Part shown: positions 34,227 through 60,802 of the stretch, piece by piece
Layout: each line of letters opens with the position of its first letter
How positions within the stretch are numbered: position 1 is the stretch's first letter
NCBI GenBank assembly: GCA_963702425.1
Contig: CAVPCQ010000021.1
Coordinates: 123,118-187,117 of the forward strand
Source of the DNA: an uncultured Acidobacteriota bacterium
Lineage (GTDB): Bacteria > Acidobacteriota > Polarisedimenticolia > J045
Length of the DNA stretch: 64,000 bases
Direction: 5' to 3'
The notes under the pieces: generated by a model
What the model saw: the letters and a program-made list of their open reading frames with translations, nothing else
The model's database searches: none
Told to the model about the DNA's origin: nothing
Translations under genes and position numbers: made by a program

Positions 34227-34387
34227 GACCCGCGAAGGGTAGCACCGGGGGCCCGGGGCGCGGGGAACCGCGCGGGACCGGGGGACTTCCCGAGTTCATC
34301 CAAGACGAGTAGCCTCCCTTCCGGCCTGGCCGGCATTCACCTGCCCGGGCATCCCCAGGCATCGAACGCAACGAGAGGGGTGGCTTC

Positions 34388-36802
34388 ATGGAGAGAGTAC
34401 CGTTCGCTGCCGTCGCCGCCGCGATCGCGATCCTCGGCCTCGCGGCCTGCTCCCGCGACGAGGTCCGGCCGGCCGCTCCCGGTTCGTCGTCCGGTCCACC
34501 GCCCGGCTACGCCGGCTCGTCGAGCTGCCGCGAGTGCCACGAGAAGTTCTACCAGCTCTGGTCGACCTCGATGCACGGCCTGGCGATGCAGCCGTACGGC
34601 GCCGAGTTCGCGAAGGCCCGCCTTTCCCCCCAGTCGCAGCCGGTCACGATCGGCGAGTACACCTACCGCGCCGACATCGCCGGGCCGAGCGGGGCCATCG
34701 TGGAGACGGGACCCAGGGGCGAGAAGCGGTATCCGATCGAGCAGGCCCTCGGCGGCAAGAACGTCTTCTATTTTCTGACCCCCTTCCCCAACGGCCGGCT
34801 GCAGACCCTCCCCCTGGCCTACGACGTCGGCACGAAGCAGTGGTTCGACGCCGCGGAGAGCGGCATCCGCCACTTCCCGGGCGCGCGCCAGAGCGAGGCC
34901 GTCCATTGGACGGACACGCAGTACACGTTCAACACCAGCTGCTACAACTGCCACGTCAGCCAGCTCTCGACGAACTACGACGCGGCGAGCGACACCTACC
35001 ACACGACCTGGACCGAGCCGGGGATCAACTGCGAGACGTGCCACGGCCTGTCGAGGAAGCACAACGAGATCGCCCGGGCGACTCCCAAGGGCCAGCCGCT
35101 CCCCGAGCTGGGCCTGATCAGCACCAAGACCATGACCAGGGAGCAGCGCAACGACCTGTGCGTCAGCTGCCACGCCAAGGGAAGCCCGCTGACCGCGACC
35201 TACCGCCCGGGAGAGCGCTTCTTCGATCACTTCGACCTCGCCACGCTGGAAGATGCCGACTACTACCCGGACGGACGCGATCTGGGCGAGAACTACACGG
35301 CAACCTCGTGGCGCATGAGCCCGTGCGCGCAGTCCGGCCAGCTCGACTGCCTCCACTGCCACACCTCGAGCGGCCGCTACCGGTTCAAGGACCCGGCGAA
35401 GGCGAACGACTCCTGCCTGCCGTGCCACGAGGAGCGGGTGAAGAACGCCCCGGCCCACACGCACCACCCCGAGGGCAGCCCCGGGAACCGCTGCACGGCC
35501 TGTCACATGCCGATGACCGCCTTCGCGCGCATGAACCGCAGCGACCACTCGATGCTCCCGCCCGCGCCGGCGGCGACCCTCGCCTACAAGTCGCCCAACG
35601 CGTGCAACCTGTGCCACCCGGAGCAGGACGCCGCCTGGGCCGACCGGCTGGTCCGCGAGTGGCGTCCCCGCGACTACCAGGCGCCGCTCCTCGAGCGAGC
35701 GGCACTGGTGGAGGCCGCGCGCAAGCGCGACTGGAGCAGGCTGCCGGCGATGCTGGCCTACATCCGGTCGAAGGACCGCGACGAGATCTTCGCCGCCTCG
35801 CTGATCCGGCTCCTGGCGTCGTGCCCCGACGAGCGGGTCGCCCCTGCCCTGCTGGTCGCTGCCAAGGACCCGTCGCCGCTCGTGCGCTCGGCGGCGATCG
35901 ACGGGCTCGCGACCAGGCCATCGCCACAGGCCCTGCGGGCCCTGCTCGACGCGACGGGCGACGCCTACCGCGTCGTCCGGGTCCGCGCCGCCGCGGGGCT
36001 GGCCGGGTTCCCCATGGATCGGCTCCCGCCGCAGCTCCACACGCAGCTCGAGCGGGCGGACGTGGAATACGTCGACTTCATCACGACGCGCCCCGACCAG
36101 TGGTCGTCGCACTACAACCTGGGCAACTACCAGATGAGCCGCGGAGAGACGGCAAAGGCCCTGGCGTCCTTCGAGGCCGCGCTGAAGCGCGAGCCGCGGG
36201 CCGTGCTGCCGATGGTCAACGCGTCGATCGCGTACGCGCGGACGGGAGAGGTCGACAAGGCGGAGCAGATGCTGGAGAAGGCACTCGCCGTCGCGCCGGA
36301 CAGCGCAGCGGCCCAGTTCAACATGGGACTGGTGAAAGCCGAGCAGAAGGACACGAAGCAGGCGGAAGTTCACCTCAGGAAGGCGGTCGCGCTCGACCCC
36401 GGGATGGCGCAGGCCGCGTTCAACCTCTGCATCGTGATCGCGCCGGACCGCGTCGACGAGGCGATCGCCTGGTGCCGGAAGGCGGCGGAGCTGCTCCCAC
36501 AGGAGCCGCGGTACGCCTCCACGCTCGCGTTCTACCTGAACCAGAAGGGGGACCAGGCGGGCGCGGTGGCGGTCCTGACTCGCCTGATCGGCGCCCACCC
36601 GGAACATCTCGACGCCTACACGCTGCTGGGCAGCATCTACGAGGGCCAGGGGAAGCGGTCGAAGGCGGAGGGCGTGTACCGCAAGGCGCTGGCTGCGGAG
36701 GGGATGGCCGGCCAGGACAAGGTCGCGATAGCGGCCCGGCTGAGCGCGCTGCAACGGGGCGGTGCGCCGGCCCGAACTCGGCGCCCGCCCGCCTCCCCCT
36801 AA
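34388..36802 (+). CDS. Octaheme cytochrome c fused to HEAT and TPR repeats, probable lipoprotein
   Basis: Eight CxxCH motifs (CRECH, CYNCH, CETCH, CVSCH, CLHCH, CLPCH, CTACH, CNLCH); lipobox LAAC; HEAT (DPSPLVR) and TPR C-terminal half. Confidence 0.88.
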   Translation: MERVPFAAVAAAIAILGLAACSRDEVRPAAPGSSSGPPPGYAGSSSCRECHEKFYQLWSTSMHGLAMQPYGAEFAKARLSPQSQPVTIGEYTYRADIAGPSGAIVETGPRGEKRYPIEQALGGKNVFYFLTPFPNGRLQTLPLAYDVGTKQWFDAAESGIRHFPGARQSEAVHWTDTQYTFNTSCYNCHVSQLSTNYDAASDTYHTTWTEPGINCETCHGLSRKHNEIARATPKGQPLPELGLISTKTMTREQRNDLCVSCHAKGSPLTATYRPGERFFDHFDLATLEDADYYPDGRDLGENYTATSWRMSPCAQSGQLDCLHCHTSSGRYRFKDPAKANDSCLPCHEERVKNAPAHTHHPEGSPGNRCTACHMPMTAFARMNRSDHSMLPPAPAATLAYKSPNACNLCHPEQDAAWADRLVREWRPRDYQAPLLERAALVEAARKRDWSRLPAMLAYIRSKDRDEIFAASLIRLLASCPDERVAPALLVAAKDPSPLVRSAAIDGLATRPSPQALRALLDATGDAYRVVRVRAAAGLAGFPMDRLPPQLHTQLERADVEYVDFITTRPDQWSSHYNLGNYQMSRGETAKALASFEAALKREPRAVLPMVNASIAYARTGEVDKAEQMLEKALAVAPDSAAAQFNMGLVKAEQKDTKQAEVHLRKAVALDPGMAQAAFNLCIVIAPDRVDEAIAWCRKAAELLPQEPRYASTLAFYLNQKGDQAGAVAVLTRLIGAHPEHLDAYTLLGSIYEGQGKRSKAEGVYRKALAAEGMAGQDKVAIAARLSALQRGGAPARTRRPPASP

Positions 36803-36910: not shown

Positions 36911-38273
<1,363 letters not shown>

Positions 38274-38303
38274 GGGAGCGGCTCCTCGGTTGGGTGTGCC
38301 GCC

Positions 38304-38345
38304 AGACTAGCGCGCCCCGGACGGGCCGGGGTTGACTTGAATCAA
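38304..38345 (-). promoter_or_regulatory. FNR/CRP-family box with class II promoter geometry
   Basis: TTGAT-TCAA-GTCAA (38345-38332, minus strand; consensus TTGAT-N4-ATCAA) and a -10-like TAGTCT at 38309-38304, which places the box centre at -41.5. Confidence 0.7.
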
Positions 38346-38386: not shown

Positions 38387-38773
38387 CTACTTCGGCTCGC
38401 GCGCCTTACGCTGCATCACGGCCAGGTATTCATCCATCTCGCGCTCGCTGGCGAAGAGCGCCGTGCCGGGGAGCGCCTTGACGATCGCAAGGACCTTCTG
38501 AATCTGCGGCTGCAGGTTGGTCATCATGACCTGGCCGCCGGTCGCGGTGACCGTCTTCTGCGCCCGGAACAGCTCTCCAATCCCCGCGCTGGTGATGAAG
38601 TCGAGCCCGGCCAGGTCGAAGACGAGGACCTTCGGCCGCGGCGCGAGCACCGGTTCGATCTCCGTCGCGAAGCGCCGAGAAGTGTCCGAGTCGAGCCGGC
38701 CGCCGATGCTGACCACGACGGCTGGCGTGCCGCCGGAGAGATTGCGCTGGCTGACGTGCATGGTCATCGGCAT
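38387..38773 (-). CDS. STAS-domain anti-sigma-factor antagonist
   Basis: GRLDS, VFDLAGLDFITSAGI. Confidence 0.88.
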   Translation of the reverse strand: MPMTMHVSQRNLSGGTPAVVVSIGGRLDSDTSRRFATEIEPVLAPRPKVLVFDLAGLDFITSAGIGELFRAQKTVTATGGQVMMTNLQPQIQKVLAIVKALPGTALFASEREMDEYLAVMQRKAREPK

Positions 38774-38796
38774 GGGGGTTCCCTCCGGGATCCCGG

Positions 38797-40929
38797 TCAA
38801 TCTCTCTCACGGAGGGCGTTCTGTCCAAAGGGTCCGCCGCGCCCCCGCAGGAGCCAGGTCTCCATCGGTCCCTTCCCCTTGATTTCGACCGTGCCGCGCG
38901 ATTCGAACTCGTAGTCGTTCTTCAGAATTTCCCAGGTCGCCCGGGTGACGTGAATCGCTCCGGTGACGCCGTGCGACTCCATCCGGCTGGCGATGTTGAC
39001 CGTGTCGCCCCACAGGTCGTAGATGAACTTCGACGCTCCGATCACGCCGGCGACGACCGGGCCCGAGTTGACCCCGATCCGCAGCTCGATCGTGAGGCCA
39101 GTCTCCGCGCTGCAGCGCCGCGCCTCGTCGAGCATGTCGAGCGCCATCTCGATCATCCGCCGGGCGTGGTCTTCGGCCGGCGTCGGGAGCCCGGCGACGG
39201 CCATGTAGGCGTCGCCGATCGTCTTGATCTTCTCGACGCCCCGCCGCTGCGCGAGCAGATCGAAGCGGTGGAACAGGTCGTTCAGGAAGGCGACCACCTC
39301 GTTGGGCGGCCGCCCGTCGGACAGCACGGTGAAGCCGACGATGTCCGCGAAGAGGACCGAGACCTCGGCGAAGTTGTCGGCAATCGGGTTGGCGCCGGCC
39401 TTCAGCCGCGTCGCGATCGCCGGCGGGAGGATGCTCAACAGCAGCGCCTCGTTCTCCCGGTTCTTCAGCTCGATCTCGCGCGTCTGCTCCTCGATGTTGC
39501 CGGCCATGCGATTGAAGGTCGTCGCCAGCTCCGCGATCTCGTCCCGCCCGGTCACCGGGGCCCGCGCCGACAGGTCCCCTTCCGCGACGCGATGGGCCGC
39601 GTCGGCCAGCGCCTGGACCGGGCGCACGATCTGCCGCGCCAGGAACCCCGCCGCGAGCAGCGTCGCCCCCAGCACGAGCAGCGTGAACAGGATCAGCCGG
39701 CGCCGCATCGCGGCCAGCGGCGCGAGCGCTTCGGCTTCGTCGAGGCGCGCGGTGATCGCCCAGTTCAGGCCGTCGATCTTCAGCGGTCCGTAGGCGTCGA
39801 GCGTCGGGACGCCGGTGAGGCCGATTTCCGGGAGCGCCCCTTCTTCCCCTCGCAGCGCGGCCTCGACCGAGGGGAGCCGCGCGTCTTCCTGCAGCGTGGT
39901 CGAGCCGTAGGCCCGGATCCGCTCCAGCGTGTCCTCCGATACCCCCCGACCGCGCAGCATCGCCAGGTACTTCTCGCCGTCCTCGATGAAGCGTCGTGCG
40001 TTCGTGCGCAGCCGGAAGTCGGGACCGACGATGCGGGCGTCGCCCGTCGCGCCGAGGCCGTCACGCGACCAGCCGCGGTCGCCGGAGACGGCGCGGTCGA
40101 GTTCCCCGACACCGATCTCGAGCACGAGCACTCCGAGCGGCCTCCCGTGGTCGAAGATCGCCGAGCAGGCGAACGCCGCCGGGGCGCCGAGCGACGGCTC
40201 GAAATCCTCGAAGTCGGTCAGGAAGACCTCGTCGCCGCTCTTCGCCACGCGGCACTTCTCGAACGCGGCCGCGAGTCCCGTCCCCCGGTAGGGCCCCTTC
40301 ACCAGGCTGGTGCCGAGGTCCGGCTGCTTCATGACGGTGTAGACGACGCGTCCGGTCCGGTCGTCGACCAGCATCAGGTCGTCGTAGCCGAAGCGCTCGA
40401 CGAGCCGGCGGTAGGAGGGGTGGAAACGCGCGTGGACGTCGCTGTAGCGACTGCCGTCCGCGGCGCGGTCCAGCTCCTGCTTCCGGCCGCCCGGCGCGGG
40501 GTTCTTCACGAGGTACCAGTACTGCGCGTAGTGCGGGCCCCGGCCGAGCGGCAGATAGTCGTCGAAGCTCGAGCGCGGCGTCACCAGGTCGGCCAACGCG
40601 GGCAGGTAGTCCGTGCGGTAGTAGGCCGAGACGGCGTCCCTCAGGTCGGCCGGCGCTTCGGCGCCGTCGATCTCGCGGAACGCGGCCCGAAACTCCTCCA
40701 TCCCCTGCACGAACATCATCGCTTCGCTGAGCGTGCGGACGTGGTTGGTCACCGTCCGGAAGTAGCTCGCGACCGCGAACGCCTTGGCGCGGCGCACCCC
40801 GGTCAGCTGCCGCTCCACGGCTTCGATCATGCTGCTTCGCGCGTTGCGGTAGCCGATGGCGCTGGCCGCGAGCACGGCGGTGGCGCCGAGCAGGAGCAGG
40901 GCGAGCAGGAGGCGGGTGCGGATGCGCAT
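38797..40929 (-). CDS. Class III adenylate/guanylate cyclase with periplasmic Cache-like and HAMP domains
   Basis: Two TMs, HAMP DEIAELATTFN, VLFADIVGFT, KIKTIGDAYM, YDLWGDTVNIASRMES. Confidence 0.92.
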   Translation of the reverse strand: MRIRTRLLLALLLLGATAVLAASAIGYRNARSSMIEAVERQLTGVRRAKAFAVASYFRTVTNHVRTLSEAMMFVQGMEEFRAAFREIDGAEAPADLRDAVSAYYRTDYLPALADLVTPRSSFDDYLPLGRGPHYAQYWYLVKNPAPGGRKQELDRAADGSRYSDVHARFHPSYRRLVERFGYDDLMLVDDRTGRVVYTVMKQPDLGTSLVKGPYRGTGLAAAFEKCRVAKSGDEVFLTDFEDFEPSLGAPAAFACSAIFDHGRPLGVLVLEIGVGELDRAVSGDRGWSRDGLGATGDARIVGPDFRLRTNARRFIEDGEKYLAMLRGRGVSEDTLERIRAYGSTTLQEDARLPSVEAALRGEEGALPEIGLTGVPTLDAYGPLKIDGLNWAITARLDEAEALAPLAAMRRRLILFTLLVLGATLLAAGFLARQIVRPVQALADAAHRVAEGDLSARAPVTGRDEIAELATTFNRMAGNIEEQTREIELKNRENEALLLSILPPAIATRLKAGANPIADNFAEVSVLFADIVGFTVLSDGRPPNEVVAFLNDLFHRFDLLAQRRGVEKIKTIGDAYMAVAGLPTPAEDHARRMIEMALDMLDEARRCSAETGLTIELRIGVNSGPVVAGVIGASKFIYDLWGDTVNIASRMESHGVTGAIHVTRATWEILKNDYEFESRGTVEIKGKGPMETWLLRGRGGPFGQNALRERD

Positions 40930-40982
40930 CGGCGGGACCGCTGCGGATGATACGCTCGAAGGGACGCGGCGGGGCAGCGCCC

Positions 40983-42614
40983 TCAGAACCGATAGCTGAA
41001 GGAAGTGAAGAGCTGCCGGTTGTCCTCGATCCCGCCGGTCGTCTGCTCGAAGGAGAGCAGGTAGAGCCAGTGCCTCCCGAAGGCGATGTCGAAGTTGAGC
41101 CCGTACCAGAGCAGCTGCGTTTCCGGGACGTCGAGAGCAGTCCGGTCTCCCGGCGCGTGCCGCCGTCGAGCAGAACGTGGATGGTCGGCGTGATCGACGC
41201 TCCCAGCGCCAGCGAGAACAGCTGCCCCTTCGCTCGCTCGCTGTTGTAGTAAGTCGCGCGGCCTCCGACGTCGAGCCACGCGATCGGGAGCCGCGACGAC
41301 CCGAGGAGCAGCGAGTACGACTCGCCGTCCCCGGCGCCGCCGCCGCGGGCGAAGCGCGCGTTCACGCCCGCCGTCAGCCAGGGGAACGACGCCTCGGCGC
41401 GCGGCCCAGTAGCCCTCGCGGAAGGCGTCGTCGAACTCGATCAGCGGGTCGATGTAGTCGCGGTAGAGGAGCACGTTGCGCCGGCTGTCGATCCCGGCGC
41501 TCAGCGTGAACTGCTGCGTGACGCGGAAGCGCACCGTGCCGAAGATGCTCGTCGGCGAGATCGCGCTGCTCTCCTGCTCGCGCTTCCAGCCGCGGTTGAA
41601 GTCGATCTCCTGCGCCAGGTAGGCCGAGAAGCGGGGGGTGTCGTAGTAGCCCTGCAGGTAGAGGAACTCGCGGTTGATCTCCCCTTCCTGGTAGGAGCCG
41701 ACCAGGCCCATGGTGGCGCCCCAGTTGGACTTTCTCCCGGGCAGGCCGCGCAGCGTCGCGTAACCGCCGTACTGCCGGACGTCCGACGAGAAGCCGTAGG
41801 TGACCGGGTTCGGCTGCGAGCCGGCGAGGCCGCCGATCGACCAGCGCGGGCCGGCGTACTCGGCGAGCACGCCGTCGAACAGGCTGACCGTCGCCAGCGT
41901 CGGGGAGTACATCCGGCCGGCCACGACCCGCACGGGCACGTCGCGCCCCGTCCAGGAGGCGTTCGCCCGGTAGACGCGATTGGTCTGCAGCTGCGCCGAC
42001 TGGTCGCCCGAGACGCGGTAGCTCCGGTAGGTGCGGATGTCGACCTCGAGCCCCATCGGGCTGCCGCCGAGGTTCGTGCCCGCGATGCGCACGTCGACGC
42101 CCGGTTGGTTGAACTGGTAGCCGGTGTCCGGCTGCTGGACGAGGAGATAGCGCAGGCCGATCCGGCCGGCCAACCCCCAGTCGCGCAGCATCCCGCGGCC
42201 GCTGGACGCGCGCCGGGGCGCCTCTGCGGCCGCGGCCCCGGTCGCCGAGGTCGCCCGCGGCGGCAGGAGCTCGCCGCAGGCCTTGGTCGGATCGACGTGC
42301 GGGACGAAGCGGACGATGTCGCCGACGACGATGTCGAGGCCGGGGTCTTCGCGCCGGCATCCGGACTTGTGCGTGGAGACGACGAAGACATGCAGCCAGC
42401 CGACCACCGTGCCGTTGCGGACGACGTCGAGGACGTCCCCCTCCTGCACGCCTTCCTCGCTCCCGGCGTCGACGTAGACCGTCGCGGAGGTCAGGTAGGT
42501 GACCTTGGCGTCGCGGGTGACCGGTTCCGCGGCGCTCGCGATGCCGGCGGTCAGTCCGATCAGGACGAGCGCGACGAGCGCCGGCCAGGCCGACCGGTGT
42601 CGGTCACGGCCCAT
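40983..42614 (-). CDS. Outer-membrane beta-barrel protein (candidate porin partner of the multiheme cytochromes); two compensating frameshifts near 41400 and 41140
   Basis: Signal peptide IASA|A; small N-terminal beta domain (VYVDAGS..G...GD); many amphipathic strands; C-terminal FSYRF. The segment VNARFARGG...LLDGGTRRETG is in a neighbouring frame. Confidence 0.75.
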   Translation of the reverse strand: MGRDRHRSAWPALVALVLIGLTAGIASAAEPVTRDAKVTYLTSATVYVDAGSEEGVQEGDVLDVVRNGTVVGWLHVFVVSTHKSGCRREDPGLDIVVGDIVRFVPHVDPTKACGELLPPRATSATGAAAAEAPRRASSGRGMLRDWGLAGRIGLRYLLVQQPDTGYQFNQPGVDVRIAGTNLGGSPMGLEVDIRTYRSYRVSGDQSAQLQTNRVYRANASWTGRDVPVRVVAGRMYSPTLATVSLFDGVLAEYAGPRWSIGGLAGSQPNPVTYGFSSDVRQYGGYATLRGLPGRKSNWGATMGLVGSYQEGEINREFLYLQGYYDTPRFSAYLAQEIDFNRGWKREQESSAISPTSIFGTVRFRVTQQFTLSAGIDSRRNVLLYRDYIDPLIEFDDAFREGYWAARRGVVPLADGGRERALRPRRRRRGRRVVLAAPRVVAAPDRVARRRRPRDLLQQRASEGAAVLAGAGSVDHADHPRSARRRHAPGDRTALDVPETQLLWYGLNFDIAFGRHWLYLLSFEQTTGGIEDNRQLFTSFSYRF

Positions 42615-45600
42615 CAGTCGGCCCTCCCCTGCGGGTGGCACTGGTAGCAGGCGCGACTCTCGTAGCGGTAGCCTGGCTCCCCGCGGTGGTGGCCGTCCGT
42701 CTCGTTCTTGTCGCTGTGCGGATGGCATCCGAGGCAGTTGAAGTCGGCGTAGTTGTTCGAGTTCGTGTGGCAGTCCGAGCAGCGGGACCACTTGTCACGG
42801 TGCCGTCCGGAGTAGATCGGGAAGTACTGCGCGTCGTGCTCGAAGCGCGCCCCCGGCCACTGGATCGTGGTGTGGCAGAGCATGCAGTCGGTCGGGAAGT
42901 GCGCGGTGCGGTGATTCGGGTCGGTCGTCCGGTCGTAGTCGTCCTGGTGGCAGCTGGCGCACGCCGTGCTCTTGCCGTCGTACACGTTGTCGGAGTGGCA
43001 GGAGCTGCAGGCCAGCGGCACGTGGGAGCCGGTGAGCGGGAAGCTGGTGCGCGAGTGATCGAAGCGGCCGCCGTCCCAGGTCGACGGTGGTGTGGCAGTC
43101 CTGGCACGTCGCCGCGAAGCCCGCCGCGCGGTGGTTCGGGTCGGTCGTGCGGTCGTAGTCGTCCTGGTGGCAGCTGGCGCACGCCGTGCTCTTGCCGTCG
43201 TAGACCCCGTCGGCGTGGCAGGCGCTGCAGGCCAGCGGCACGTGGGCCCCGGTCAGCGGGAAGCCGGTCGACTGGTGGTTGTACGTGGCGCCGCTCCAGC
43301 TCGTGGTCCCGGTGTGGCAGACCGTGCAGTCGGTCGGGAAGCCCGCCTGGCGGTGGTTCGGGTCGGTGGCGCCGTCGTAGTCCTTCCTGTGGCAGCTGTA
43401 GCAGTCGGTCGGCTTGCCGTCGTAGACACCGTCGAAGTGACACTGGCTGCACGACAGGCCGGCGTGGGCGCCCGCCAGCGGGAACTGCGTGGTCCCGTGG
43501 TCGAACGTCGACGGCCGCCAGCCGACGATCGTGTGGCACAGCGTGCAGTCGTTCGGGAAGGCCGCCTGGCGGTGGTTCGGGTCGGTCGTCGCGTTGTAGT
43601 CGTCGGTGTGGCAGCTCTCGCACAGCGTGCTCTTCCCCGCGTACACCCCGTCGCCGTGGCACGCCGCGCAGGAGGGGGACGCGTGACCGCCGGTCAGCGG
43701 GAAGCGCGGCGTGTGCGCGTAGCTCGCACCGGCCCAGGTCGCCGTGGTGTGGCACTGCGTGCACGTGGTCGAGAAGCCCGCCGCGGCGTGTGCGGGATCG
43801 GTCGTCCGCTGGTAGTCGTCGCGGTGGCAGCTGACGCAGTCGGTCGGCTTGCCGTCGTAGACCCCGTCCGAATGGCACTGGCTGCAGGAGAGCCCGACGT
43901 GGGCCCCGGTCAGCGGGAACTGCGAGCGCCCGTGATCGAACGAGGAAGGCCGCCAGCCGACGATCGTGTGGCACAGCGTGCAGTCGTTCGGGAAGGCCGC
44001 CTGGCGGTGGGGCGGGTCGGTCGTCGCGTTGTAGTCGTCCGTGTGGCAGCTCTCGCACAGCGTGCTCTTCCCCGCGTACACCCCGTCGCCGTGGCAGGCC
44101 TGGCAGGAGGGGGACGCGTGACCGCCGGTCAGCGGGAAGCGCGGCGTGTGCGGGAAGCTCGCACCGGCCCAGGTCGCCGTGGTGTGGCACTGGGTGCAGG
44201 TCGTCGAGAAGCCCGCCGCCGCGTGCGCGGGATCGGTCGTCCGCTGGTAGTCGTCGCGGTGGCAGCTGACGCAGTCGGTCGGCTTGCCGTCGTAGACGCC
44301 GTCCGAATGGCACTGGCTGCAGGACAGCCCGACGTGGGCGCCGGTCAGCGGGAACTGCGAGCGCCCGTGGTCGAACGAGGAGGGACGCCAGCCGACGATC
44401 GTGTGGCACAGCGTGCAGTCGTTCGGGAAGGCGGCCTGGCGGTGCGGCGGGTCGGTCGTCGCGTTGTAGTCCGCGTCGTGGCAGCTCTCGCAGCGCGTGC
44501 TCTTCCCGGCGTAGACCCCGTCGCCGTGGCACGCCTGGCAGGACGCCGCGGCGTGCCCGCCGGTCAGCGGGAAGCGCGGCGGTGTGCGCGTAGCTCGCAC
44601 CGGCCCAGGTCGCCGTCGTGTGGCACTGCGTGCAGGTCGTCGAGAAGCCCGCCGCGGGGTGGGCCGGCGTCGTCGTGCGGTCGAAGTCGTCCCGGTGACA
44701 GCTGACGCAGTCGGTCGGCTTGCCGTCGTAGACCCCGTCCGAGTGGCACTGGCTGCAGGACAGCCCGACGTGGGCCCCGGTCAGCGGGAACTGCGAGCGC
44801 CCGTGGTCGAACGAGGAGGGCCGCCAGCCGACGATCGTGTGGCACAGCGTGCAGTCGTTCGGGAAGGCGGCCTGGCGGTGCGGCGGGTCGGTCGTCGCGT
44901 TGTAGTCGCGCGTCGTGGCAGCTCTCGCAGCGCGTGCTCTTCCCGGCGTAGACCCCGTCGCCGTGGCACGACTGGCAGGACGCCGCCGGCGTGCCCCCCG
45001 GTCAGCGGGAAGCGCGGGGTGTGCGCGTAGCTCGCGCCGGCCCAGGTCGCCGTCGTGTGGCACTGCGTGCAGGTCGTCGAGAAGCCCGCCGCGGGGTGGG
45101 CCGGCGAGAGGTGCGCTCGTAGTCGGGACGGTGGCAGGCGTAGCAGTCGGTGCTCTTCCCCTTGTAGACCCCGTCGCCGTGGCACGCCTGGCACGATACC
45201 CCGGCGTGTCCCGCGCTCAGCGGGAAGGTGGACACGTGGGTGAAGCTCGCCCCGGTCCAGCTGACCGTCGTGTGGCACTGCGTGCAGGTCTGCGGGAATC
45301 CGCCGGCCTTGTGCGCCGGATCGGTGGTGGCGTCGAAGTCGCGGCGATGACAGCTGACGCACTCGGTCGACAGGCCGTCGTACTGGCCGCTCGAGTGGCA
45401 CGAGGCGCAGCTCGCCGCGGTGTGCGCGCCGGTCAGCGGGAAGCCGGACTGGGAGTGGTCGAAGGTCGCGGTCTGCCAGAGACCGGTCTGGTGACACTGC
45501 CCGCAGTCGGTCGGGAAGCCGAGGGCGACGTGGTTGGGCGAGGTCGCCGATTCGTAGTCGCTCTGGTGGCACGAGTAGCAGCCGACCGGCGTGTTGACCC

Positions 45601-46114
45601 ACTGCAGCTGGCCCTGGGAGGCCGGCTTGTGGCAGGACTCGCAGTCGGCCGCGATGTGGCGCCCGGTCAGCGAGAAGCGCGTCCGCTCGTGCGCCCTCCC
45701 CATCCCGGTCCGGTCGCGGAAGTTGCGCGTGGTGTGGCACCGCCCGCAGTCGATGCCGAGCTCTCCGAGGTGGATGTCGCGGTGGCAGGAGGCGCACGAC
45801 GGGCTGGCCTGCTTGAATTCCAGCGACCGGTGGCAGTTCCGGCAGCCCGCGGTCTGGTGTCCTCCTTCCAGCGGGAAGCCCGAGATCTTCCGGTGGTCGA
45901 ACTCCTTGGAGATCGAAGCGGGAATCCAGCGGTCGGGGGCGTGGCAGAGCGCGCAGTCCTCGGTGAAGTCGCCGTGCGGATAGGGGGGATCCTCGGCCGG
46001 CTTCTCCTCGGCGCGGGCCGGGCCGCCGAGCGCCAGGAGGGTCGCGACGAGTGCCGGCAGCAGGGCGATGCGATGCCGGCGGATCCGTTTCGGGCCGTGG
46101 GCTGCGATGCTCAT
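42614..46114 (-). CDS. Giant repetitive multiheme cytochrome c (~1165 aa, ~46 CxxCH), reconstructed across ~5 frameshifts
   Basis: Signal peptide PARA|E; triheme modules CxxCH-x11-CxxCH-x20-CxxCH-x26/27 with FDH..(T/S).FPLTG.H. Fragments lie in ORF-track frames 45002, 44781, 42604, 42795 and 42614. Confidence 0.85.
43440..45110. repeat. Intragenic ~435-bp tandem repeat (145-aa hexaheme unit), ~3.5-4 near-identical copies
   Basis: For example GCCGTGGTGTGGCACTG at 43741 recurs at 44176; alternating 73-aa and 72-aa modules. Confidence 0.85.
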
Positions 46115-48256
46115 GAGGTCCCCCTCTCCTCTGCGGGCCGGGGCGGTACCTTGCCGTGGCAGTCCTGGCAGCGTCGCGGAAGCGGGCGGTAGGTGACGAC
46201 CGGGCGGCCGTCGACCTGCTTCACCGGGTGACAGCGCGCGCAGGCGACCTGCGCGTGCTTCCCCGTCAACGGGAAGTTCTTCAACGCGGCGTGATCGAAG
46301 CGCGACGCCGGGCGGAACGAATCGGAGCCGTGACAGGCCTGGCAGGCGCCGCCGTCGCGCCGGTCGTCGAACTGCGTGCCGTGCGGGCCGGCGTGGCAGT
46401 CCCGGCACGCGGCGTGGCGTGCGCGGAACTCCAGCGGGTTGGCGGTGGCGGCGGCGGCGAGCAGGAGGTTCGGCCCCCGCGGCGATTTCCCCAGCTCGGC
46501 GTGACACGTCACGCACGGCACCGCGCGGTGCGCCCCCTCCAGCGGGAACGGGCTCTTCGCGTGGTCGTCCAGGTCGAAGAGGCTGGGCATGATGCCGCCG
46601 TTGCCGTGGCAGTCGGCGCAGCCCCCGGCGCGCGTCCGGTCCCCTTTCGGCCCGAACCGGCCGGCGTGCGGATCGCGGTGACACGACTCGCACGCCCGGT
46701 TCTCGAGGTTCAGCGCGATCTTCGCCGTCCCGAGCGTCTCGGGGCCGGGAAGCGGCGGGAGCATCGGGCGGGCCGGGCCGTGGCACGCGCTGCAGGCCAC
46801 GGCCGCGTGGCGGCCGGCGATCGGGAAGCGCGTCGAGGCGTGCTCGACGGCGCCGAAGCGCGCCGGCTTCCAGCCGCCCGGCGCGTGGCACGCCCCGCAC
46901 TCCCCCTGGTCGCGGCGGGACGCCAGCTGGCCCTTGTGCGCGTCGGCGTGGCAGTCGCGGCAGGCGCCGCTCTTCGGCCGGAGCTGCGCGGACCCCTTGC
47001 CCTGCCGGCGCGTGTGACATTCCGCACACGCCACGCTGCGGTGCTTTCCTTCCAGCGGGTAGCGGGCCGACGCGTGCTGCGCGACGGTGTAGGTCGCCGG
47101 CTTGAAGCCCTCGACGCCGTGGCATGCGGCACAGTCGGCGGGGCGTCCGGCGAGCGTCGCCTGGCCGTCGTGGGCGTCGGCGTGGCACGCCCCGCAGCTG
47201 TCGAAGCGCGGCTTCGCGCCGCCGGCCCGCGGGTCGTGGCACCGCGCGCAGGCGACCGCGACGTGCCGCCCGCGCAGCGGGTAGCGCGTGCGGCCGTGAT
47301 CGAACTGCCCCTCGGCCACGCGCCGGAAGTCGTCGGTGACGTGGCACCGGCTGCACTGCGGGCCCAGCTGGGCCGCGTGCGGGTCGGCGTGGCACGCCGA
47401 GCACTCCGCGTGGGCCAGCGGCTTGAACCGCGGCAGCGGCTGCGCGACGCCGGTGCCGGCGAGCAACGCGCCGGGCGCGGGGGCAGGCGCGGCTTCGCCG
47501 GACGCCGGGTTGGAGGCCGCGGAGCTGCCGGTGACGACCACGCGGGCGCCGTCCACGCGGTGGCACTTCGCGCAGGCCGTATCGCGGTGCTTGCCGGTCA
47601 GCGGGTAGGCGGTCCGCGCGTGATCGAAGCCCGCGGCGGGACGCCAGCCTTCCGTGCCGTGGCAGCGCGCGCAGTCGGTCCCCAGCGTGTTCTCGTGCGG
47701 ATCGCGGTGGCACGCGCCGCAGGCCGCCTCGAGCCCGGTCCAGCCGCGCGACGCGTCCCGCCGCGGGGACAGGCGCTGCGCCTCCGAGACGCGGAACGCC
47801 GCCTTGTGACAGGCGTCGCAGCGCTGCGCGGCGTGCTTGCCGGCGAGCGGCCAGCCGGCGCGGCGGTGGTCGAACTTCTCCGCGCTCCCCTCGTCCCACT
47901 GGATCAGCGCGAAGTCGGCCCCGGCGTGCTCGGGGTGGCAGGACGCGCAGTCCTTCCCCTCGACCTTCGCGTGCAGCCCCCGGTCGCGAGCCGCGAGCCA
48001 GGCGATCTCCTTGTGGCAGGCAAGGCACTGCGGCGTCACCCCGCCCTTGCCGCTCGCGTGGCACTGCGAGGCACTTGAGCGAGGCGTCGAGGGACGCGTG
48101 GGCGCGCGAGAGCGGCCCCGGCGAGACCTGGGCGAACGCCGGGCCCGCGCCGGCGGCCATGATCCACACGGTCGCGAGCGACGCCACGAGCGCCGCACTA
48201 CGGCCGCGACCGTCCGCCCGCCCCGCTGGGTCCGCCACCCGGCGCGCGCTACGCAA
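46111..48256 (-). CDS. Multiheme cytochrome c (~23 CxxCH), one frameshift near 48070
   Basis: Signal peptide PAFA|QVSPGPLS.AH; 22 intact CxxCH plus one restored by removing a single base; FDH...PL.G.H modules. Start codon uncertain. Confidence 0.85.
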
Positions 48257-49720
48257 CGGCGGCCTCGCCGGCTTCCGGCAGCGGCACGTCCTTCTTCACG
48301 ATCCGCACGCCGAGCCGCTCGAGGAACGCGAAAGGCGGCTCGCCGCCGAGCCGGAGGATCACGAAGTCGTTGGGCAGCAGCTGGCGCGCCCCCTCGTGCT
48401 CCAGCTCGACCGCGTCCTCGCGGATCGCCCGCACCTGGCTCCCCAGCACCAGGCGCAGCCGGCCGTGCGCGACCGCTTCCGCGAGCTTGGCGCGGTTGCG
48501 CTCCTTCGCGCGCTCGAAGCTCGCGCCGCGATAGGACAGCGTCACCGCCGTCCCGGGCTGGTTGGCCAGGCCGACCGCCGACTCGATCGCGCTGTCGCCG
48601 CCGCCGACCACGAGCACGCGGGTGCCCTGGAAGGCCTCCATCTCGACGATGTCGTAGAAGACCTTCCCCAGCTCCTCGCCGGGGACCTCGAGACGCCGCG
48701 GGTTGCCGCGCCGCCCCATCGCCAGCACGACGCGCCGGGCGCGCAGCGGGCCGGCCGCGGTGTCGACGACGAAGAGCCCTTCGTCGCGGTGGACGTTCTT
48801 CACCTCGTGCTGCACGCGCACGTCGAGCCCGGTGTTCGAGATGATCGTCTGCCAGACCTCGAGCAGCGTCTCCTTGGAGGCGTCGCTGATCCACAGGTCG
48901 CCGTAGAGCGGGATCGAGAGCGGCTCCGCGAAGAGCAGCTTGTGGCGCGGGTACTTGCGGATCGAGTCGGCCAGCGTGCCGCGCTCGAGCACCGCGCAGG
49001 TGAGGTGCTGGCGCATCGCCTCGAGGCCGGCCGACAGGCCGGCCGGCCCGGAGCCGACGACGATCAGGTCGAGCGCACCGGAGTCTGCCGTCTGCGCGGG
49101 GCGGTCGCACCCGGCGCCCGCGGCCCGCAGCTCGGCCGCGATCGCTTCGGCGGCGATCTTCCCCTCGTTGATCGCGTTCTTGATCAGGCCGCGCCCGCCC
49201 AGCTCGCCCACGATGTAGAGCCCCGGCACGCTGCTCTCGAACCGGCCGCTCAGCGCCGGGACCTCGACGCGGTGCACCGCCGCGCCGCTCGAGAGCACGA
49301 TGCCGCCGACCGGGCAGGCCTCGACGCACTGCCCGTGGCCCTGGCAGATCGAGGTCTCGACGACGGCCAGCTTGCCGTGCAGGCGGATCGCGCCCGGCTC
49401 GGGGCAGGCCGCGACGCAGGTCCCGCAGCCGACGCAGACGTCGGCGCGCACGACCGCGTGCAGGCGCCGGCCGGCGCGCCCGGGCCGTGGGCCGCGTCCT
49501 CCGCGACCTCGCGGGCCGCGACGACCTCGAAGACCTGCTGCGGGACGCCGCAGCCGGGGCAGAAGGTCGCTCCGGGTGGGACGGCCGCGGCGCAGCGCGG
49601 GCACGGCTTCGCGGGCGCAGCCGGGGCCGTCGGCGCGGAGCCGCTCCCGGCCGACGCGCGCAGGTGGCGCCGCACCAGGAAGAGCGTCAGCACGAAGAAC
49701 GCGACGACGGTGAGGATCAT
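48249..49720 (-). CDS. Membrane-anchored zinc-ribbon + 2x[4Fe-4S] ferredoxin + TrxR/YpdA-type FAD/NAD(P)H oxidoreductase, one frameshift near 49480
   Basis: N-terminal TM, CPRC...CPGC, CVGCGTCVAACP, CQGHGQCVEACP, GSGPAG, GGGDSA, SYRG. Confidence 0.85.
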
Positions 49721-49739
49721 CTCCAAGGCGGCCCGCTCC

Positions 49740-50818
49740 TCACCAGAACCAGGTCGCGCCGACCGCGACCACGACCGCGACGTGGATCGCGACCGCGGCG
49801 AAGGCGGAGATCGCGAACGGCTGGTGGGCCGCGTGCCAGAACCGGAAGAGACGGTGGGTCGCGTCGAGCATCCGGGCCTGCTGCGCCAGCGCCATCTCGC
49901 GCCGGGCGAGCGCGAGCACGCGGCGCAGCGCGCGGCGGTCGAGCGCGTTCGGCCGGGCGGTGCGGATCTCCGCGGCGAGGCGCCGCGCCGCGCGCCGGCG
50001 CGCGAAGTCGTCGCGCGCCATCTGCGCGACCGCCGCAGCCAGGCCGAGGCCCGCGGCGTCAGCGGCGGCCGGGGCGAGCATCGTCTCGATGCGCTGCGGG
50101 TCGAGTCCGGTCGCCGCCGCGATCTCCCCGACCAGCTCGCGCCGCCGGCCGGCGGCTTCCTCGCGCGACAGCTCGAGGCCGTCCCTCCGGCGCGGGATGC
50201 GGACGTAGATGTAGCGCCCGATGACGCCGGAGAGCGCGACGACCAGCATCGCGGCATAGCCGAGGCCGATCAGGCCGCGGAATCGCCAGCCCGCGTGGAC
50301 CGCGCCGGCCAGCGGCACGACGATGCCGGCCGCGACGTGCACGTCGAGCCAGCGCGGCACCGAGCCGGTGAAGGCGAGCCAGCGCACGCGCTTGCGCAGC
50401 GGGTAGAGCCACAGGAAGAGGAACAGCGCGAAGGCGAAGATGCCGACCGACTGCCCGACGGTGCCCGAGGGGCGGAGCCAGGGGTGCCAGGCGTGCCGCA
50501 CGCGTCCGGCCTGCGACAGCAGGTAGTAGGGGCTGCCGAGCAGCGTGATGCGGCAGCACGGCGACGGGCAGGTAGGCCAGCCGCGGGTTGGCGGCGGTCT
50601 TCGGGGCCGCGGGAACCACCGTGGCCGGGGCGGGCAGGCGGCGAGTCTGGTGCGGCCGGGCGGGGGGAGGCGTGGCCGGGAAGACGGTCTTCCCGCTGGG
50701 GGGCGTGCGGCGCGATGGGCCGAGGGCCCGCCGGGGGTTGCGACGCGCCGGGGGCCGCGCGGACCGCACGCGCGGCCTCGCCCCCGGACCGGACGACGGT
50801 CCCCTGTGATTCGCTCAT
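49740..50818 (-). CDS. Integral membrane protein with conserved TM histidines (cytochrome b/ferric-reductase-like), two frameshifts near 50585 and 50552
   Basis: ATG 50818 after GGGGAG; LYPLRKR, WLDVH, VHAGWRF, SGVIGRYIY, WHAAH.PF, IHV. Length is 3n+2, consistent with two insertions. Confidence 0.72.
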
Positions 50819-50877
50819 TCAGCGGCTCCCCTGCACCTCTTATCGGATCGCACTTAGCATCTTTTAGGCCCACTTAA

Positions 50878-50893
50878 TGCAAGATCCGTGCCC
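50878..50893 (-). promoter_or_regulatory. Sigma54 (RpoN) -24/-12 promoter
   Basis: Minus strand GGGCACG-GATC-TTGCA versus consensus TGGCACG-N4-TTGCW; exact GG-N10-GC spacing; 60 nt upstream of the first gene; AT-richer context. Confidence 0.8.
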
Positions 50894-56213: not shown

Positions 56214-57680
56214 CTACCCGTCGCGCCGGATCTCGAGGACGACGCGGCCCCCCCGGTGCAGGCGCGCGACGAGCGGCATGGCCCCCGGGAGCGAGTGCGT
56301 CGCGCAGCTGTAGCAGGGATCGAAGGCGCGGAACGCCATCTCGATCCGATCCAGCAGCGCCGCGTCGGGCGTGACGCCCGGCCGGATCAACTCGGTCGCG
56401 ACCTTCTTCGTCACCATCTGGATCGGCGCATTGTTGTGGGTCGTGCCGACGACCAGGTTGGCGCCGGTGCAGATCCCCTGTTCGTCGCAGGTGTAGTGGT
56501 GGATGAGGGTGCCGCGCATCGCCTCGACGATCCCCACCCCCTCCCCCGTGATCCGGTCGGGCAGGACCCGGAAGGTCTCGCTCGTCAATTCCGGGTCGTC
56601 GAGCAGCGCGTTCAGTCGCTCCGCCGCGAACAGCATCTCGACCAGCCGGGCCCAGTGGTGCGCCAGCATCGCGCCCGACGGTCGGCCACCGAGCGTGGCG
56701 AACAGCTCCTGCCGCGCCGCCTCGGCCTCGGGCGTCGCCATCCGCTCCGCGACGTTGAGCCGCGCCAGCGGGCCGGCGCCGTAGACCGGCGAGTCCGGCC
56801 CTTCGACGAAGCCGCGCCAGCCGCGCGCGCGGAGGTAGGGGAACTTCAGGTAGGTCCAGGGCTCGACGTGTTCGGCGATGATGCGGGCGTAGTCCGCCGG
56901 TGCGAAGCGCGCGATCTCGCTCCCCTCGCAGTCGACGACGCGCACCATGCCGTCGTAGAACGTCACCGCGCCGTCGGCGTCGACCAGCCCCATGTGTCCG
57001 ATCGCCAGCGCGTAAGGGCCGCGAAGAATCGTCTCGACCCAGCGCTGCTGGCCGAGCACCGCGTCCTTGAAGAGCTGCACCGAGAAGCGCGCGAACTCCA
57101 TCAGCGACGCCGCCATCGGCTGCAGGGCGGAGCGTTCCTCCTCGGAGAGTCCCTTCGAGACACCGCCCGGCACGCACCAGCAGACGTTGCGCTTGCGGCC
57201 GCCGAGCACCGCCTGGATCTCCTGCGCCGTCGCGCGCGCCTCGATCACCTGGCGCCCGATCTCCAGCCCCACCCGGGCCACCACGCCGAGGATGTTGCGC
57301 TCCGCCGGCGCGGCGTCCGGCCCGCAGATGAAGTCCGGCGCGGAAAGAGCGTAGAAGTGCGCGATGTGGCTGTGCAGGAAGTGGGCGCAGTAGTACGCCT
57401 CGCGCAGCTTGACCGCGGCCGGCGCGATCGCCCCGCCGAAGCAGGCATCCACCGCCTTCGAGCCGGCCAGGTGGTGGCTGGCCGGGCAGACGCCGCAGAT
57501 CCGCGTGACGATCCGCGGCACCTCCTCGAGCGGCCGCCCGACGACGAAGCGCTCGAACCCGCGCAGCTCGGGAATCTGGAAGTAGCAGTCGGACACGCCG
57601 CCGGCGTCGTCGAGAAAGATCTCGATCCGGCCGTGTCCTTCGAGACGCGTGATCGGGTCGATCGTGATCGTCCGGCCCAT
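56214..57680 (-). CDS. mvhA: [NiFe]-hydrogenase large subunit, group 3c (MvhA-like)
   Basis: TRLEGHG, ELRGFE, L1 RICGVC, L2 DPCYSCATH followed by a cleavable tail. Confidence 0.9.
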   Translation of the reverse strand: MGRTITIDPITRLEGHGRIEIFLDDAGGVSDCYFQIPELRGFERFVVGRPLEEVPRIVTRICGVCPASHHLAGSKAVDACFGGAIAPAAVKLREAYYCAHFLHSHIAHFYALSAPDFICGPDAAPAERNILGVVARVGLEIGRQVIEARATAQEIQAVLGGRKRNVCWCVPGGVSKGLSEEERSALQPMAASLMEFARFSVQLFKDAVLGQQRWVETILRGPYALAIGHMGLVDADGAVTFYDGMVRVVDCEGSEIARFAPADYARIIAEHVEPWTYLKFPYLRARGWRGFVEGPDSPVYGAGPLARLNVAERMATPEAEAARQELFATLGGRPSGAMLAHHWARLVEMLFAAERLNALLDDPELTSETFRVLPDRITGEGVGIVEAMRGTLIHHYTCDEQGICTGANLVVGTTHNNAPIQMVTKKVATELIRPGVTPDAALLDRIEMAFRAFDPCYSCATHSLPGAMPLVARLHRGGRVVLEIRRDG

Positions 57681-58642: not shown

Positions 58643-58645
58643 CGC

Positions 58646-59077
58646 TCACCCCACCCGCGTCACGGCCGGGAGCGTCTCGACGCGGCTCGGGCCGAGCTTC
58701 CGGATCCGCTCGGTCATGTCGGCGACGATTTCCGCGAAGCGCTGCCCCTCGCTCGCGCTGACCCACTCCAGGCGCACCCGGTCCGGCTCGAGCCCGTAGG
58801 CCTCGACCAGGCGCGCCAGCAGCACCTGCCGCCGCAGCGTCTTGTAGTTCCCCTCCGAGTAGTGGCAGTCGCCCGGGTGACAGCCGCAGATCAGCACGCC
58901 ATCGGCCCCTTCGGCCAGCGCCTTGAGCACGAACGACGGCCGGATCCGTGCCGAGCACATCGTCCGGATCACGCGCACGTTCGGCGGGTACTTGATCCGG
59001 CTGGTCCCCGCCAGGTCGGCTCCGGTGTACGAGCACCAGTTGCAGAGGAAGCCGACGATCTTCGGTTCGAACGCCAT
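58646..59077 (-). CDS. mvhD: MvhD [2Fe-2S] subunit
   Basis: FLCNWCSYTGADLAG, MCSAR, GCHPGDCHY, WVSASEG. Confidence 0.92.
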   Translation of the reverse strand: MAFEPKIVGFLCNWCSYTGADLAGTSRIKYPPNVRVIRTMCSARIRPSFVLKALAEGADGVLICGCHPGDCHYSEGNYKTLRRQVLLARLVEAYGLEPDRVRLEWVSASEGQRFAEIVADMTERIRKLGPSRVETLPAVTRVG

Positions 59078-60792: not shown

Positions 60793-60802
60793 CGCTCCTC
60801 CC

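Follow-up and report, generated by a model that had tools for sequence, protein, structure and literature searches.

How electrons enter or leave a very large multiheme conduit at the inner membrane is the question raised by the locus described here. Clusters of the PCC3 type, which have the largest heme counts known in bacteria, are a predicted class. The class was defined from genomes by He et al. 2017 (PMC5566968) as a porin, extracellular and periplasmic cytochromes, and a five-helix membrane protein of ~300 amino acids (aa). The stretch of DNA analyzed here (the window, 64 kb; G000:C21:123118-187117) comes from a 5.1-Mb metagenome-assembled genome (MAG) of an Acidobacteriota bacterium (G000; 42 contigs, 91% complete, ~71% G+C). 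It contains five minus-strand genes, running from 50818 to 40983 downstream of a sigma54-type −24/−12 element, which abut or overlap one another (19 nt separate the first two, and the following junctions overlap by 8, 4 and 1 nt). The operon is most readily understood, with a probability of roughly 0.55, as a PCC3-type trans-envelope conduit accompanied by a co-conserved flavoprotein that would work with NAD(P)H, FAD and iron-sulfur (FeS) clusters on the cytoplasmic face.

An earlier note on this DNA, made from its letters, had described five linked minus-strand genes with a final beta-barrel ending in F and ~69 CxxCH heme motifs. The coordinates fit that composition exactly, and the motif count resolves into 68 intact motifs plus one split by a frameshift, that is, 23 in one cytochrome and 46 in the other. 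The features, with signal peptides assigned by eye, are as follows.

50879-50893, minus strand: sigma54-type −24/−12 promoter-like element GGGCAC-N5-TTGCA (consensus match)
49740-50818, minus strand: inner-membrane protein of the PCC3 "IMP" type, with five transmembrane (TM) helices, in which two b hemes have candidate bis-His sites (motifs, AlphaFold2 (AF2) model)
48249-49720, minus strand: membrane-anchored flavoprotein with an N-terminal TM helix, a zinc ribbon, two [4Fe-4S] motifs and a thioredoxin reductase (TrxR)/YpdA-like FAD and NAD(P)H domain (Pfam, alignment)
46111-48256, minus strand: cytochrome 1, a c-type cytochrome with 23 hemes and a signal peptide, presumably periplasmic (CxxCH count)
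42614-46114, minus strand: cytochrome 2, a 46-heme c-type cytochrome with c7-like three-heme repeats (CxxCH count, repeats)
40983-42614, minus strand: outer-membrane beta-barrel modeled with 22 strands, plus a small beta domain at the N-terminus (AF2 model, Foldseek, VIA-align)

The membrane protein, the flavoprotein and the barrel are each present as a single copy in G000. Two genomes of the same genus, G001 and G004, were used for comparison. In G001, all five genes are intact (364, 490, 665, 1020 and 549 aa, with 23 + 40 heme motifs), and these orthologues served as search queries.

Conservation of the five genes

When one genome per species was scanned with the barrel alignment, 193 relatives were found, from which 80 loci were kept, two of them being duplicates of loci already in the set. 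Our own profiles matched the barrel in 79 of the 80, and the 44 loci with at least 7 kb of upstream sequence form the base of the following counts. The kept loci belong to Gemmatimonadota (the most), Acidobacteriota, Binatia, Eisenbacteria, Polarisedimenticolia and Myxococcales, and a search of the ESM Atlas returned only clusters from the same phyla. The membrane protein is encoded upstream on the same strand in 43 of the 44 loci. The flavoprotein is found in 41 of the 44, lying between the membrane protein and cytochrome 1 in 21, divergently upstream in 16, upstream on the same strand in three, and downstream in one. An open reading frame (ORF) with 20-24 heme motifs is present in 42/44, and a single locus (L023) lacks the membrane protein, the flavoprotein and this ORF together. 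A second heme ORF ending at the barrel, with 10-62 motifs, was caught in 33/44; the value of 62 (L020) represents one open frame through both cytochrome genes, and the rule applied misses loci where the barrel frame runs upstream, as in G001. By this count, the five genes are kept together across phyla, which is in favor of the earlier note's reading. Among 101 Acidobacteriota genomes, the membrane-protein family occurs in 26 (E≤1e-15, 14 of them below 1e-55; the tally counts one unpublished genome, G085) and the barrel in eight, seven of which have both.

Inner-membrane protein

No Pfam or NCBIfam family was assigned to the membrane protein. Its own family comprises 870 proteins in 90% clusters and, at E≤0.001, 2103 representatives; where members of 10 distant clusters are named, they come from Calditrichota and KSB1/Deferribacteres. 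In an alignment of 80 sequences (A2), the positions that never vary include Y144, K148, H166, H180, G203, G206, W333, H337 and H351, while S202 and W162 reach a conservation of at least 90%. W162-x3-H166-x13-H180 forms part of helix 3, S202-G203-x-x-G206 of helix 4, and W333-x3-H337-x13-H351 of helix 5. The AF2 model (pLDDT 86.7, and above 90 over residues 85-360) has five long membrane helices at 83-99, 125-141, 159-180, 187-210 and 323-358, together with a helical insert of 110 aa; the conserved core is ~280 aa long, covering approximately residues 85-364 of P0001. The positive-inside rule assigns the N-terminus, the loop that follows helix 2 and the 110-aa insert to the cytoplasmic side, so that H166 and H337 would lie near the cytoplasm and H180 and H351 near the periplasm. 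The TM His residues to which the earlier note had drawn attention comprise four that never vary, arranged as two HX13H motifs on parallel helices, and their pairing around heme is a candidate arrangement, in which the protein would bind two b hemes through the HX13H pairs. He et al. printed the same motifs for the PCC3 membrane protein, an SGXXG in helix 4 and a WX3HX13H in each of helices 3 and 5, and proposed that it binds two b hemes and is possibly quinone-active (PMC5566968). The conserved core of the protein analyzed here is close to the printed ~300 aa in length, and five helices, SGxxG and two WX3HX13H motifs are present in A2 and the AF2 model.

Flavoprotein

The flavoprotein is matched by Pyr_redox_3 (1.3e-42) and Fer4_10 (2e-9) in Pfam. 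Its closest solved relatives are YpdA/Bdr (7a7b; E 1.8e-49), thioredoxin reductases, and TrxR-type ferredoxin-NADP reductases. It scores 176 bits against the YpdA/Bdr bacillithiol disulfide reductase model TIGR04018, whose cut-off is 339.9, and has additional TM, zinc-ribbon and 2×[4Fe-4S] parts beyond YpdA/Bdr. Alignment of 28 orthologues (A3) revealed conserved GSGPAG and GGGDSA motifs, while a conserved redox CxxC is absent from these 28 and the only invariant Cys residues are those of the FeS motifs. The first cluster motif reads CxxCxxCxxxCP. The second reads CxxHxxCxxxCP (residues 126-137 of the G001 orthologue, about 49340-49300 of the window), and its His is invariant in 28/28 orthologues, which makes it a candidate His-ligated [4Fe-4S] cluster. 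Two subtypes can be distinguished: one is co-directional with the cluster, has the zinc ribbon and is 55-62% identical; the other is divergent or downstream, is without the zinc ribbon and is 41-46% identical. An N-terminal TM helix is common to both, and as the basic residues come after this helix, the body of the protein is predicted to be cytoplasmic.

Four proteins considered as fusions of the membrane protein on Pfam grounds (P0187, P0185, P0192 and P0252) were rejected, the stretches in question being Arg/Pro-rich, out of frame and read-through artefacts; the three apparent flavoprotein fusions among them (P0187, P0185 and P0192) have lost helix 5. Open frames of 820-1170 aa around distant paralogues were not taken as fusions on the same grounds. 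Read-through products of frameshifted high-G+C contigs can mimic Rosetta-stone fusions.

Cytochromes and outer-membrane barrel

The 68 intact CxxCH motifs lie between 48027 and 42649, spread over the three minus-strand frames (22/20/26), and the plus-strand frames of the same stretch contain none. The 69th, the first of cytochrome 1, is interrupted here by the frameshift at 48068; in G004 it is whole and reads KCLQCH. The orthologue of cytochrome 1 in G001 is an intact protein of 665 aa with 23 motifs and a match to Cytochrome_C7 at 3.7e-31. Cytochrome 2 matches Cytochrome_C7 at 3e-54 in 11 stretches, and a tandem repeat at 42866-45185 has a period of 219 bp (10.6 copies) or, equivalently, of 435 bp (5.3 copies), the 219-bp unit corresponding to 73 aa per three hemes. 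The motif number of cytochrome 2 varies among close relatives, with 40 in G001, 46 in the window and 49, in one frame, in G004; repeat copies may have been collapsed in the short-read MAG. Searches against the PDB at E≤0.001 gave zero matches for either cytochrome. For the MtrA/DmsE family TIGR03508, cytochrome 2 reaches 49.2 bits against a cut-off of 192.2 and cytochrome 1 has no match, and for TIGR04257 cytochrome 2 stays below the cut-off (38 versus 40 bits). Cytochrome 1 is presumed to be periplasmic, and cytochrome 2 would stand outside the cell.

The barrel, which ends in ...SFSYRF, has no Pfam or NCBIfam family and 51 relatives in 90% clusters. The AF2 model of the G001 protein (pLDDT 77.2, pTM 0.70) has its 22 strands from residue 154 onward, with a small beta domain at the N-terminus, so the barrel read earlier from the letters is also an outer-membrane barrel in the model. 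Of the 362 Foldseek matches at E≤0.001, the top ones are to usher, OprD and AlgE barrels, and the best VIA-align matches are the 22-strand TonB-dependent transporters 5t3r_D (Z 16.8) and BtuB (Z 16.2, rmsd 4.3 over 343 residues). MtrB is absent among the fold matches listed by Foldseek and VIA-align, but may be related to the barrel all the same.

These features bear on a reading without any extracellular wire, in which the cytochromes would store electrons in the periplasm, or would reduce or oxidize a soluble substrate entering through an ordinary channel barrel. Such a role would suit a barrel that resembles 22-strand transporter barrels rather than MtrB specifically, and a cytochrome 2 sequence in which no lipobox or surface-anchor signal was seen. 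However, the very low residue-per-heme ratio of cytochrome 2 and the variation of its c7 repeats (40, 46, 49) are more in keeping with a wire of variable reach than with an enzyme, and Pfam and NCBIfam scans found no catalytic domain in either cytochrome. We regard this reading as improbable.

As a separate observation on the barrel, the N-terminal domain, assigned to the periplasm (residues 35-107 of the G001 protein, about 42510-42290 of the window), resembles a domain of a flagellar outer-ring protein (8z5n_5; 29% identity, Z 11.7, rmsd 1.8 over 73 residues), with a weak Pfam match to FlgT_C (E 0.005).

Frame breaks: assembly error or decay

Frame-changing 1-bp indels were located across the operon with a phase plot of G+C at third codon positions (GC3) and by alignment with G004. 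By gene, they are as follows.

Membrane protein, 49740-50818, minus strand: near 50646 and 50550/50553
Flavoprotein, 48249-49720, minus strand: near 49478
Cytochrome 1, 46111-48256, minus strand: 48068
Cytochrome 2, 42614-46114, minus strand: near 45107, 44988, 44908, 44580 and 43082, with a compensated pair at 43234/43239
Barrel, 40983-42614, minus strand: paired frameshifts near 41401 and 41130, leaving about 270 nt out of frame

G004 is collinear with the window and 88-95% identical to it, and its reading frame is unbroken in the genes of the membrane protein, the flavoprotein and cytochrome 2 and in most of the barrel gene; its own breaks are one in cytochrome 1 and another at the junction of cytochrome 2 and the barrel. 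Contigs from four sediment or freshwater metagenomes (X1, X2, X6 and X7) are 92-100% alike to the window, and among the indels listed there, those at 41129, 41404, 43082, 44988, 45106, 49466 and 50549 restore the frame. At 41129, the restoring base has a depth of 13.1 of 16.9 in X1. This comparison used contigs, the best run sharing 0.32 of the window's words, and depth, habitat and absence of cover are not treated as evidence.

If the cluster were instead a true pseudogene cluster of this strain, the pathway would have been lost and the 1-bp indels would be real mutations. This is what the distribution of the breaks might suggest: all window-private frame changes relative to G004 fall within 41130-50646, ending at the borders of the operon, and none occur in the remaining 54 kb, where the flagged changes at 7142 and 56206 are common to both genomes and mark gene borders. 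The single genomic copy of the membrane protein, the flavoprotein and the barrel points the same way, as does a minor X1 contig without the restoring base at 41129. Decay, however, would have had to produce about ten independent 1-bp indels, insertions as well as deletions, without any larger deletion, while GC3 stays at 0.93-1.00 across the operon. In its non-repeat parts, with substitutions polarized by G001 as the third genome, 63/135 window-private substitutions lie outside codon position 3, resembling the 57/144 on the branch of the intact G004 lineage, where neutral decay would lead to about two thirds; the codon-position patterns give no clear sign of relaxed selection. In addition, a similar cluster exists in an unrelated region of the assembly. 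At G000:C37:148500-159500 (L099), repeat-rich coding sequence with no heme motifs contains about 13 1-bp indels that shift the frame in G000 and not in G004, to which it is 93% identical, and therefore poor-consensus patches occur in the assembly outside the operon too. G004, another few-contig assembly, likewise shows scattered frame breaks of its own. Pseudogenization is accordingly held to be unlikely on these patterns, and the frame breaks are most probably consensus errors of the assembly, as the earlier note had suspected from the letters. Since this is the most likely explanation, the organism probably has a working copy, and the practical lesson of the window is that assembly errors have probably masked an intact operon.

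The GC3-phase detector was also tried as a genome-wide count of frameshifts and rejected. It flagged 355/1624 same-strand boundaries in G000 and 20/134 in controls, a false-positive rate too high for counting, and it was therefore used only to choose regions for direct comparison. The breaks on the G004 side correspond to window positions 46995 (cytochrome 1), 42519 and 42537 (L011, about 7000 and about 11600), the latter two being 1-bp differences in G004 between the signal peptide and the mature part of the barrel. Other G004 breaks are scattered over the 64 kb, among them those at window positions 21847, 22110, 28899 and 34990. At 27475-28700, in sulfatase genes (27005-28684 and 28650-29807), 63 indels of lengths not divisible by three separate the two genomes in 1.2 kb; the frame is clean in the window and not in G004. 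The text of PMC12977616 contains no mention of frameshift, pseudogene or indel.

Promoter

The −24/−12 element GGGCACGGATCTTGCA has one mismatch to TGGCAC-N5-TTGCW, lies 60 nt 5′ of the first ATG, and is the sole sigma54 match with one mismatch within the 64-kb window. Matches with up to two mismatches are not enriched across the window (37 observed versus 48.7 expected). The element is identical in G004, and the G001 version CGGCATAGATCTTGCA retains the GG/GC, so the near-consensus element pointed out earlier is present and conserved within the genus. A −24/−12 element was detected 5′ of the membrane-protein gene in 11/46 loci. G000 has rpoN, and a search for domains of enhancer-binding proteins, the activators of sigma54, gave 36 matches in the genome and zero on the contig of the operon; among the 25 window ORFs scanned, no sigma54 activator turned up. 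A sigma54 promoter for the operon in this genus is plausible on these grounds.

Other dense multiheme loci are found elsewhere in the genome, at G000:C6:300000-315000 and G000:C37:35000-50000, where a single strand can hold as many as 49 CxxCH in 10 kb. The first of them includes a gene for a sigma54 activator (C6:301926-302441).

Proposed electron path

If the operon encodes a PCC3-type conduit fed from the cytoplasmic face, the flavoprotein, tethered by its one TM helix, would take hydride from NAD(P)H onto FAD and pass single electrons through its two [4Fe-4S] clusters, in the second of which the invariant His would stand for a Cys ligand. The five-helix membrane protein would carry the electrons across the inner membrane on two b hemes, the inner one held by H166/H337 and the outer one by H180/H351. 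The 23-heme cytochrome would then bridge the periplasm, the heme chain would cross the outer membrane via the 22-strand barrel, and the 46-heme cytochrome, with its three-heme c7-like modules, would extend the wire outside. Outward flow would fit both the redox drop and the membrane potential, and would regenerate NAD(P)+ with no energy conserved at the NAD(P)H step. Inward flow to NAD(P)+ would be opposed by potential and voltage, and therefore direct coupling of the flavoprotein would mean electron export. Direct flow from NAD(P)H to the outside is plausible. The direct coupling to NAD(P)H or ferredoxin put forward in the earlier note was overstated: its basis is the co-conservation of the genes, and the apparent fusions turned out to be artefacts.

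A more specific picture can be offered only tentatively. The flavoprotein and the di-heme membrane protein would form a two-component, quinone-independent NAD(P)H oxidase feeding the 23-heme cytochrome, the 22-strand barrel and an external heme cable, whose length would be tuned in three-heme steps between close strains (40, 46, 49), and electrons would be handed over to heme b at the invariant His-ligated cluster.

The chief alternative is the quinone-coupled model of He et al., in which the membrane protein may exchange electrons with quinones instead. There, the di-heme protein would deal with the pool of quinones as do the b subunits of hydrogenase and formate dehydrogenase, the wire would run outward or inward, with Fe(II), humics or partner cells among the possible donors, and the flavoprotein would be a side branch, for example an NAD(P)H:quinone, regulatory or repair reductase sharing the membrane partner. 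It is the published hypothesis for the IMP (PMC5566968), and the earlier statement that the operon has no obvious quinol oxidase is open to doubt, the PCC3 membrane protein itself being proposed as quinone-active in that paper. The only weak leads for the membrane protein are quinone-active di-heme b proteins (PF01292, CybB 5oc0 and FdnI 1kqg_C), PCC3 was first found in Fe(II) oxidizers, and inward electron flow to quinone is feasible. The flavoprotein gene moreover shifts place and strand (21 between, 16 divergent, 1 downstream), so that its linkage looks looser than that of the other four genes. On the other hand, the flavoprotein occurs in 41/44 loci, and its own membrane anchor together with the invariant His-cluster motif suggests a fixed membrane partner. 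No quinone site was identified in the membrane protein, and inward flow on to NAD(P)+ would oppose the potential and the membrane voltage. Quinone coupling is considered possible rather than probable.

Several observations weigh against the flavoprotein-fed PCC3 conduit. None of the heme-b families in Pfam matches the membrane protein significantly: the best is PF01292 (prokaryotic cytochrome b561 / Ni_hydr_CYTB; E 0.044, 14 bits against a cut-off of 30.1), and DUF4405 and PF01794 (E 2.8) are other weak matches. Foldseek with its model gave zero matches at E≤0.001, and VIA-align to CybB, STEAP1/4, cytochrome b561, Dcytb and FdnI gave Z of 6.7-7.9, the noise level of helical bundles (CybB 5oc0, Z 7.9, rmsd 3.5 over 136 residues; STEAP1/4, Z 7.6, rmsd 5.5-5.7; FdnI 1kqg_C, Z 6.7). 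Gene content, motifs, folds and co-conservation are observed here, and cofactor binding, the contact of the flavoprotein with the membrane protein and other contacts among the five proteins, the place of each cytochrome and the direction of flow are inferred; the four seeming fusions are frameshift artefacts. Membership in PCC3 is judged from the printed features of the Sideroxydans and Leptothrix class, and the PCC3 literature covered, in its printed main text (PMC5566968, PMC10734462), contains no experiment on any PCC3 cluster. The view that the frame breaks are assembly errors is drawn from related genomes and metagenome contigs, and the minor X1 contig retains the state of the window at 41129. 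Finally, the family of the membrane protein is more widespread than that of the barrel (26 versus 8 of the 101 genomes), and in G039 (L014) a membrane-protein/flavoprotein pair has no CxxCH ORF within 16 kb. The pair would therefore also have a job independent of the wire, and it appears as a wider module of which the wire is one client.

The presence of an NAD(P)H-type FeS flavoprotein in 41/44 loci across phyla makes the question of entry at the inner membrane testable at the bench. If the quinone-independent conduit is real, soil and sediment phyla such as Gemmatimonadota and Acidobacteriota could dump fermentative reducing power on minerals, humics or partner cells, bypassing the respiratory chain. 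Abundant and mostly uncultured bacteria would thereby gain a route to the outside that is independent of the respiratory chain, with a bearing on iron, humic and carbon cycling.

Neighboring genes

Directly 3′ of the barrel, at 38390-40929 on the minus strand, a HAMP-adenylate cyclase (710 aa) and a STAS protein are encoded, collinear in G004. The cyclase (38828-40976) has no counterpart at this place in G001, where the sequence after the barrel resumes at window position 38827. Just downstream of the operon are also two further cytochrome genes, encoding a 440-aa "Multi-haem_cyto" protein (36987-38306, minus strand) and an 829-aa protein with multiheme, HEAT and TPR parts (34313-36799, plus strand). 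Farther away, large and small subunits of a [NiFe] hydrogenase stand beside HdrA-like FeS flavoproteins in an Mvh/Hdr-type arrangement (56217-63998, minus strand), and a 1546-aa protein with repeated MopE-type metal-binding motifs is encoded at 936-5573 on the plus strand.

Comparison with known systems

MtrCAB of Shewanella, MtoAB/PioAB and the Geobacter Pcc/Ext conduits use cytochromes of 8-12 hemes and receive electrons through quinol dehydrogenases of the CymA, ImcH or CbcL type. They share with the present operon the logic of a periplasm-facing multiheme cytochrome, a barrel and an outer cytochrome. They differ from it in heme number (8-12 versus 23 and 46), and entry proteins of the CymA, ImcH or CbcL type are absent from the cluster here. 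The Geobacter c7-type "nanowire" cytochromes include a dodecaheme protein of four triheme domains; cytochrome 2 is similarly a chain of Cytochrome_C7-like units, but is far longer and barrel-linked.

The proposed inner-membrane step is alike in principle to NOX, STEAP, ferric reductases and MsrQ-Fre, in which electrons pass from NAD(P)H through flavin and two bis-His b hemes across the membrane to an acceptor on the outer face. The candidate sites here are likewise His pairs on two helices, of the form HX13H. These enzymes, however, have an FNR-type domain, whereas the flavoprotein here is of the TrxR/YpdA type with two FeS clusters; PF01794 gives no significant match to the membrane protein (E 2.8), and the acceptor here would be the 23-heme cytochrome.

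The closest likeness is to PCC3, which has the same four-part set of a barrel, a large repeat-built cytochrome, a cytochrome of ~21-27 hemes and a five-helix membrane protein. The extracellular cytochrome of PCC3 is repeat-built, with a median of 34 motifs and up to 85, and the periplasmic one has a median of 21 (PMC5566968); Hoover et al. 2023 give PCC3 motif numbers of 21/24/27 and 10-35 (PMC10734462). Cytochrome 1, with 23 motifs, falls within the periplasmic range of 21-27, and cytochrome 2 corresponds to the larger protein with 46 motifs and 219/435-bp repeats, its extracellular site being predicted. The barrel has 22 strands here, and predictions of up to 42 TM regions have been printed for some PCC3 members (PMC5566968). 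The hosts of PCC3, a class predicted from genomes, are Sideroxydans, Leptothrix and other Proteobacteria (PMC5566968, PMC10734462), whereas the present locus is from Acidobacteriota and the related loci are mostly from Gemmatimonadota. The cluster here also differs in its 23 hemes where 21, 24 or 27 are printed, and in the flavoprotein that travels with it. In the main text of He et al., there is no mention of a flavoprotein, FAD, a pyridine nucleotide or ferredoxin (PMC5566968); in that of Hoover et al., flavoprotein and pyridine nucleotide are absent, and FAD occurs only in the references (PMC10734462).

An analogous arrangement is the ptdABCDEFG cluster of marine bacteria, whose function is stated as unknown (bioRxiv 10.1101/2023.11.21.568154). 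By its printed description, it has a porin, multiheme cytochromes, an FAD/NAD(P)-binding oxidoreductase, a 2×[4Fe-4S] protein and a ferric-reductase-like membrane protein, as here; it differs in that its cytochromes are penta-, tetra- and deca-heme proteins and that its FeS and flavin parts are separate, the FeS protein having a cyclic-nucleotide domain. From comparison of the printed descriptions, ptd appears to correspond to "PCC4" of He et al., in whose text the membrane proteins of PCC3 and PCC4 are without significant overall similarity (PMC5566968). A preprint on peat describes other clusters, with 8-13 hemes (10.64898/2026.05.27.727921), a literature search on 23-heme cytochromes found nothing relevant, and one combining PCC3 with the names of phyla brought up mainly soil surveys. 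The remark of the earlier note that no characterized system of such composition was known has thus to be narrowed: uncharacterized homologous clusters do exist, as it had allowed, but four of the five parts are already in print as the predicted PCC3 (PMC5566968), and ptd is analogous by its description. What the present locus adds to the PCC3 literature covered, as far as its printed text goes, is the co-conserved flavoprotein as a fifth part of the cluster.

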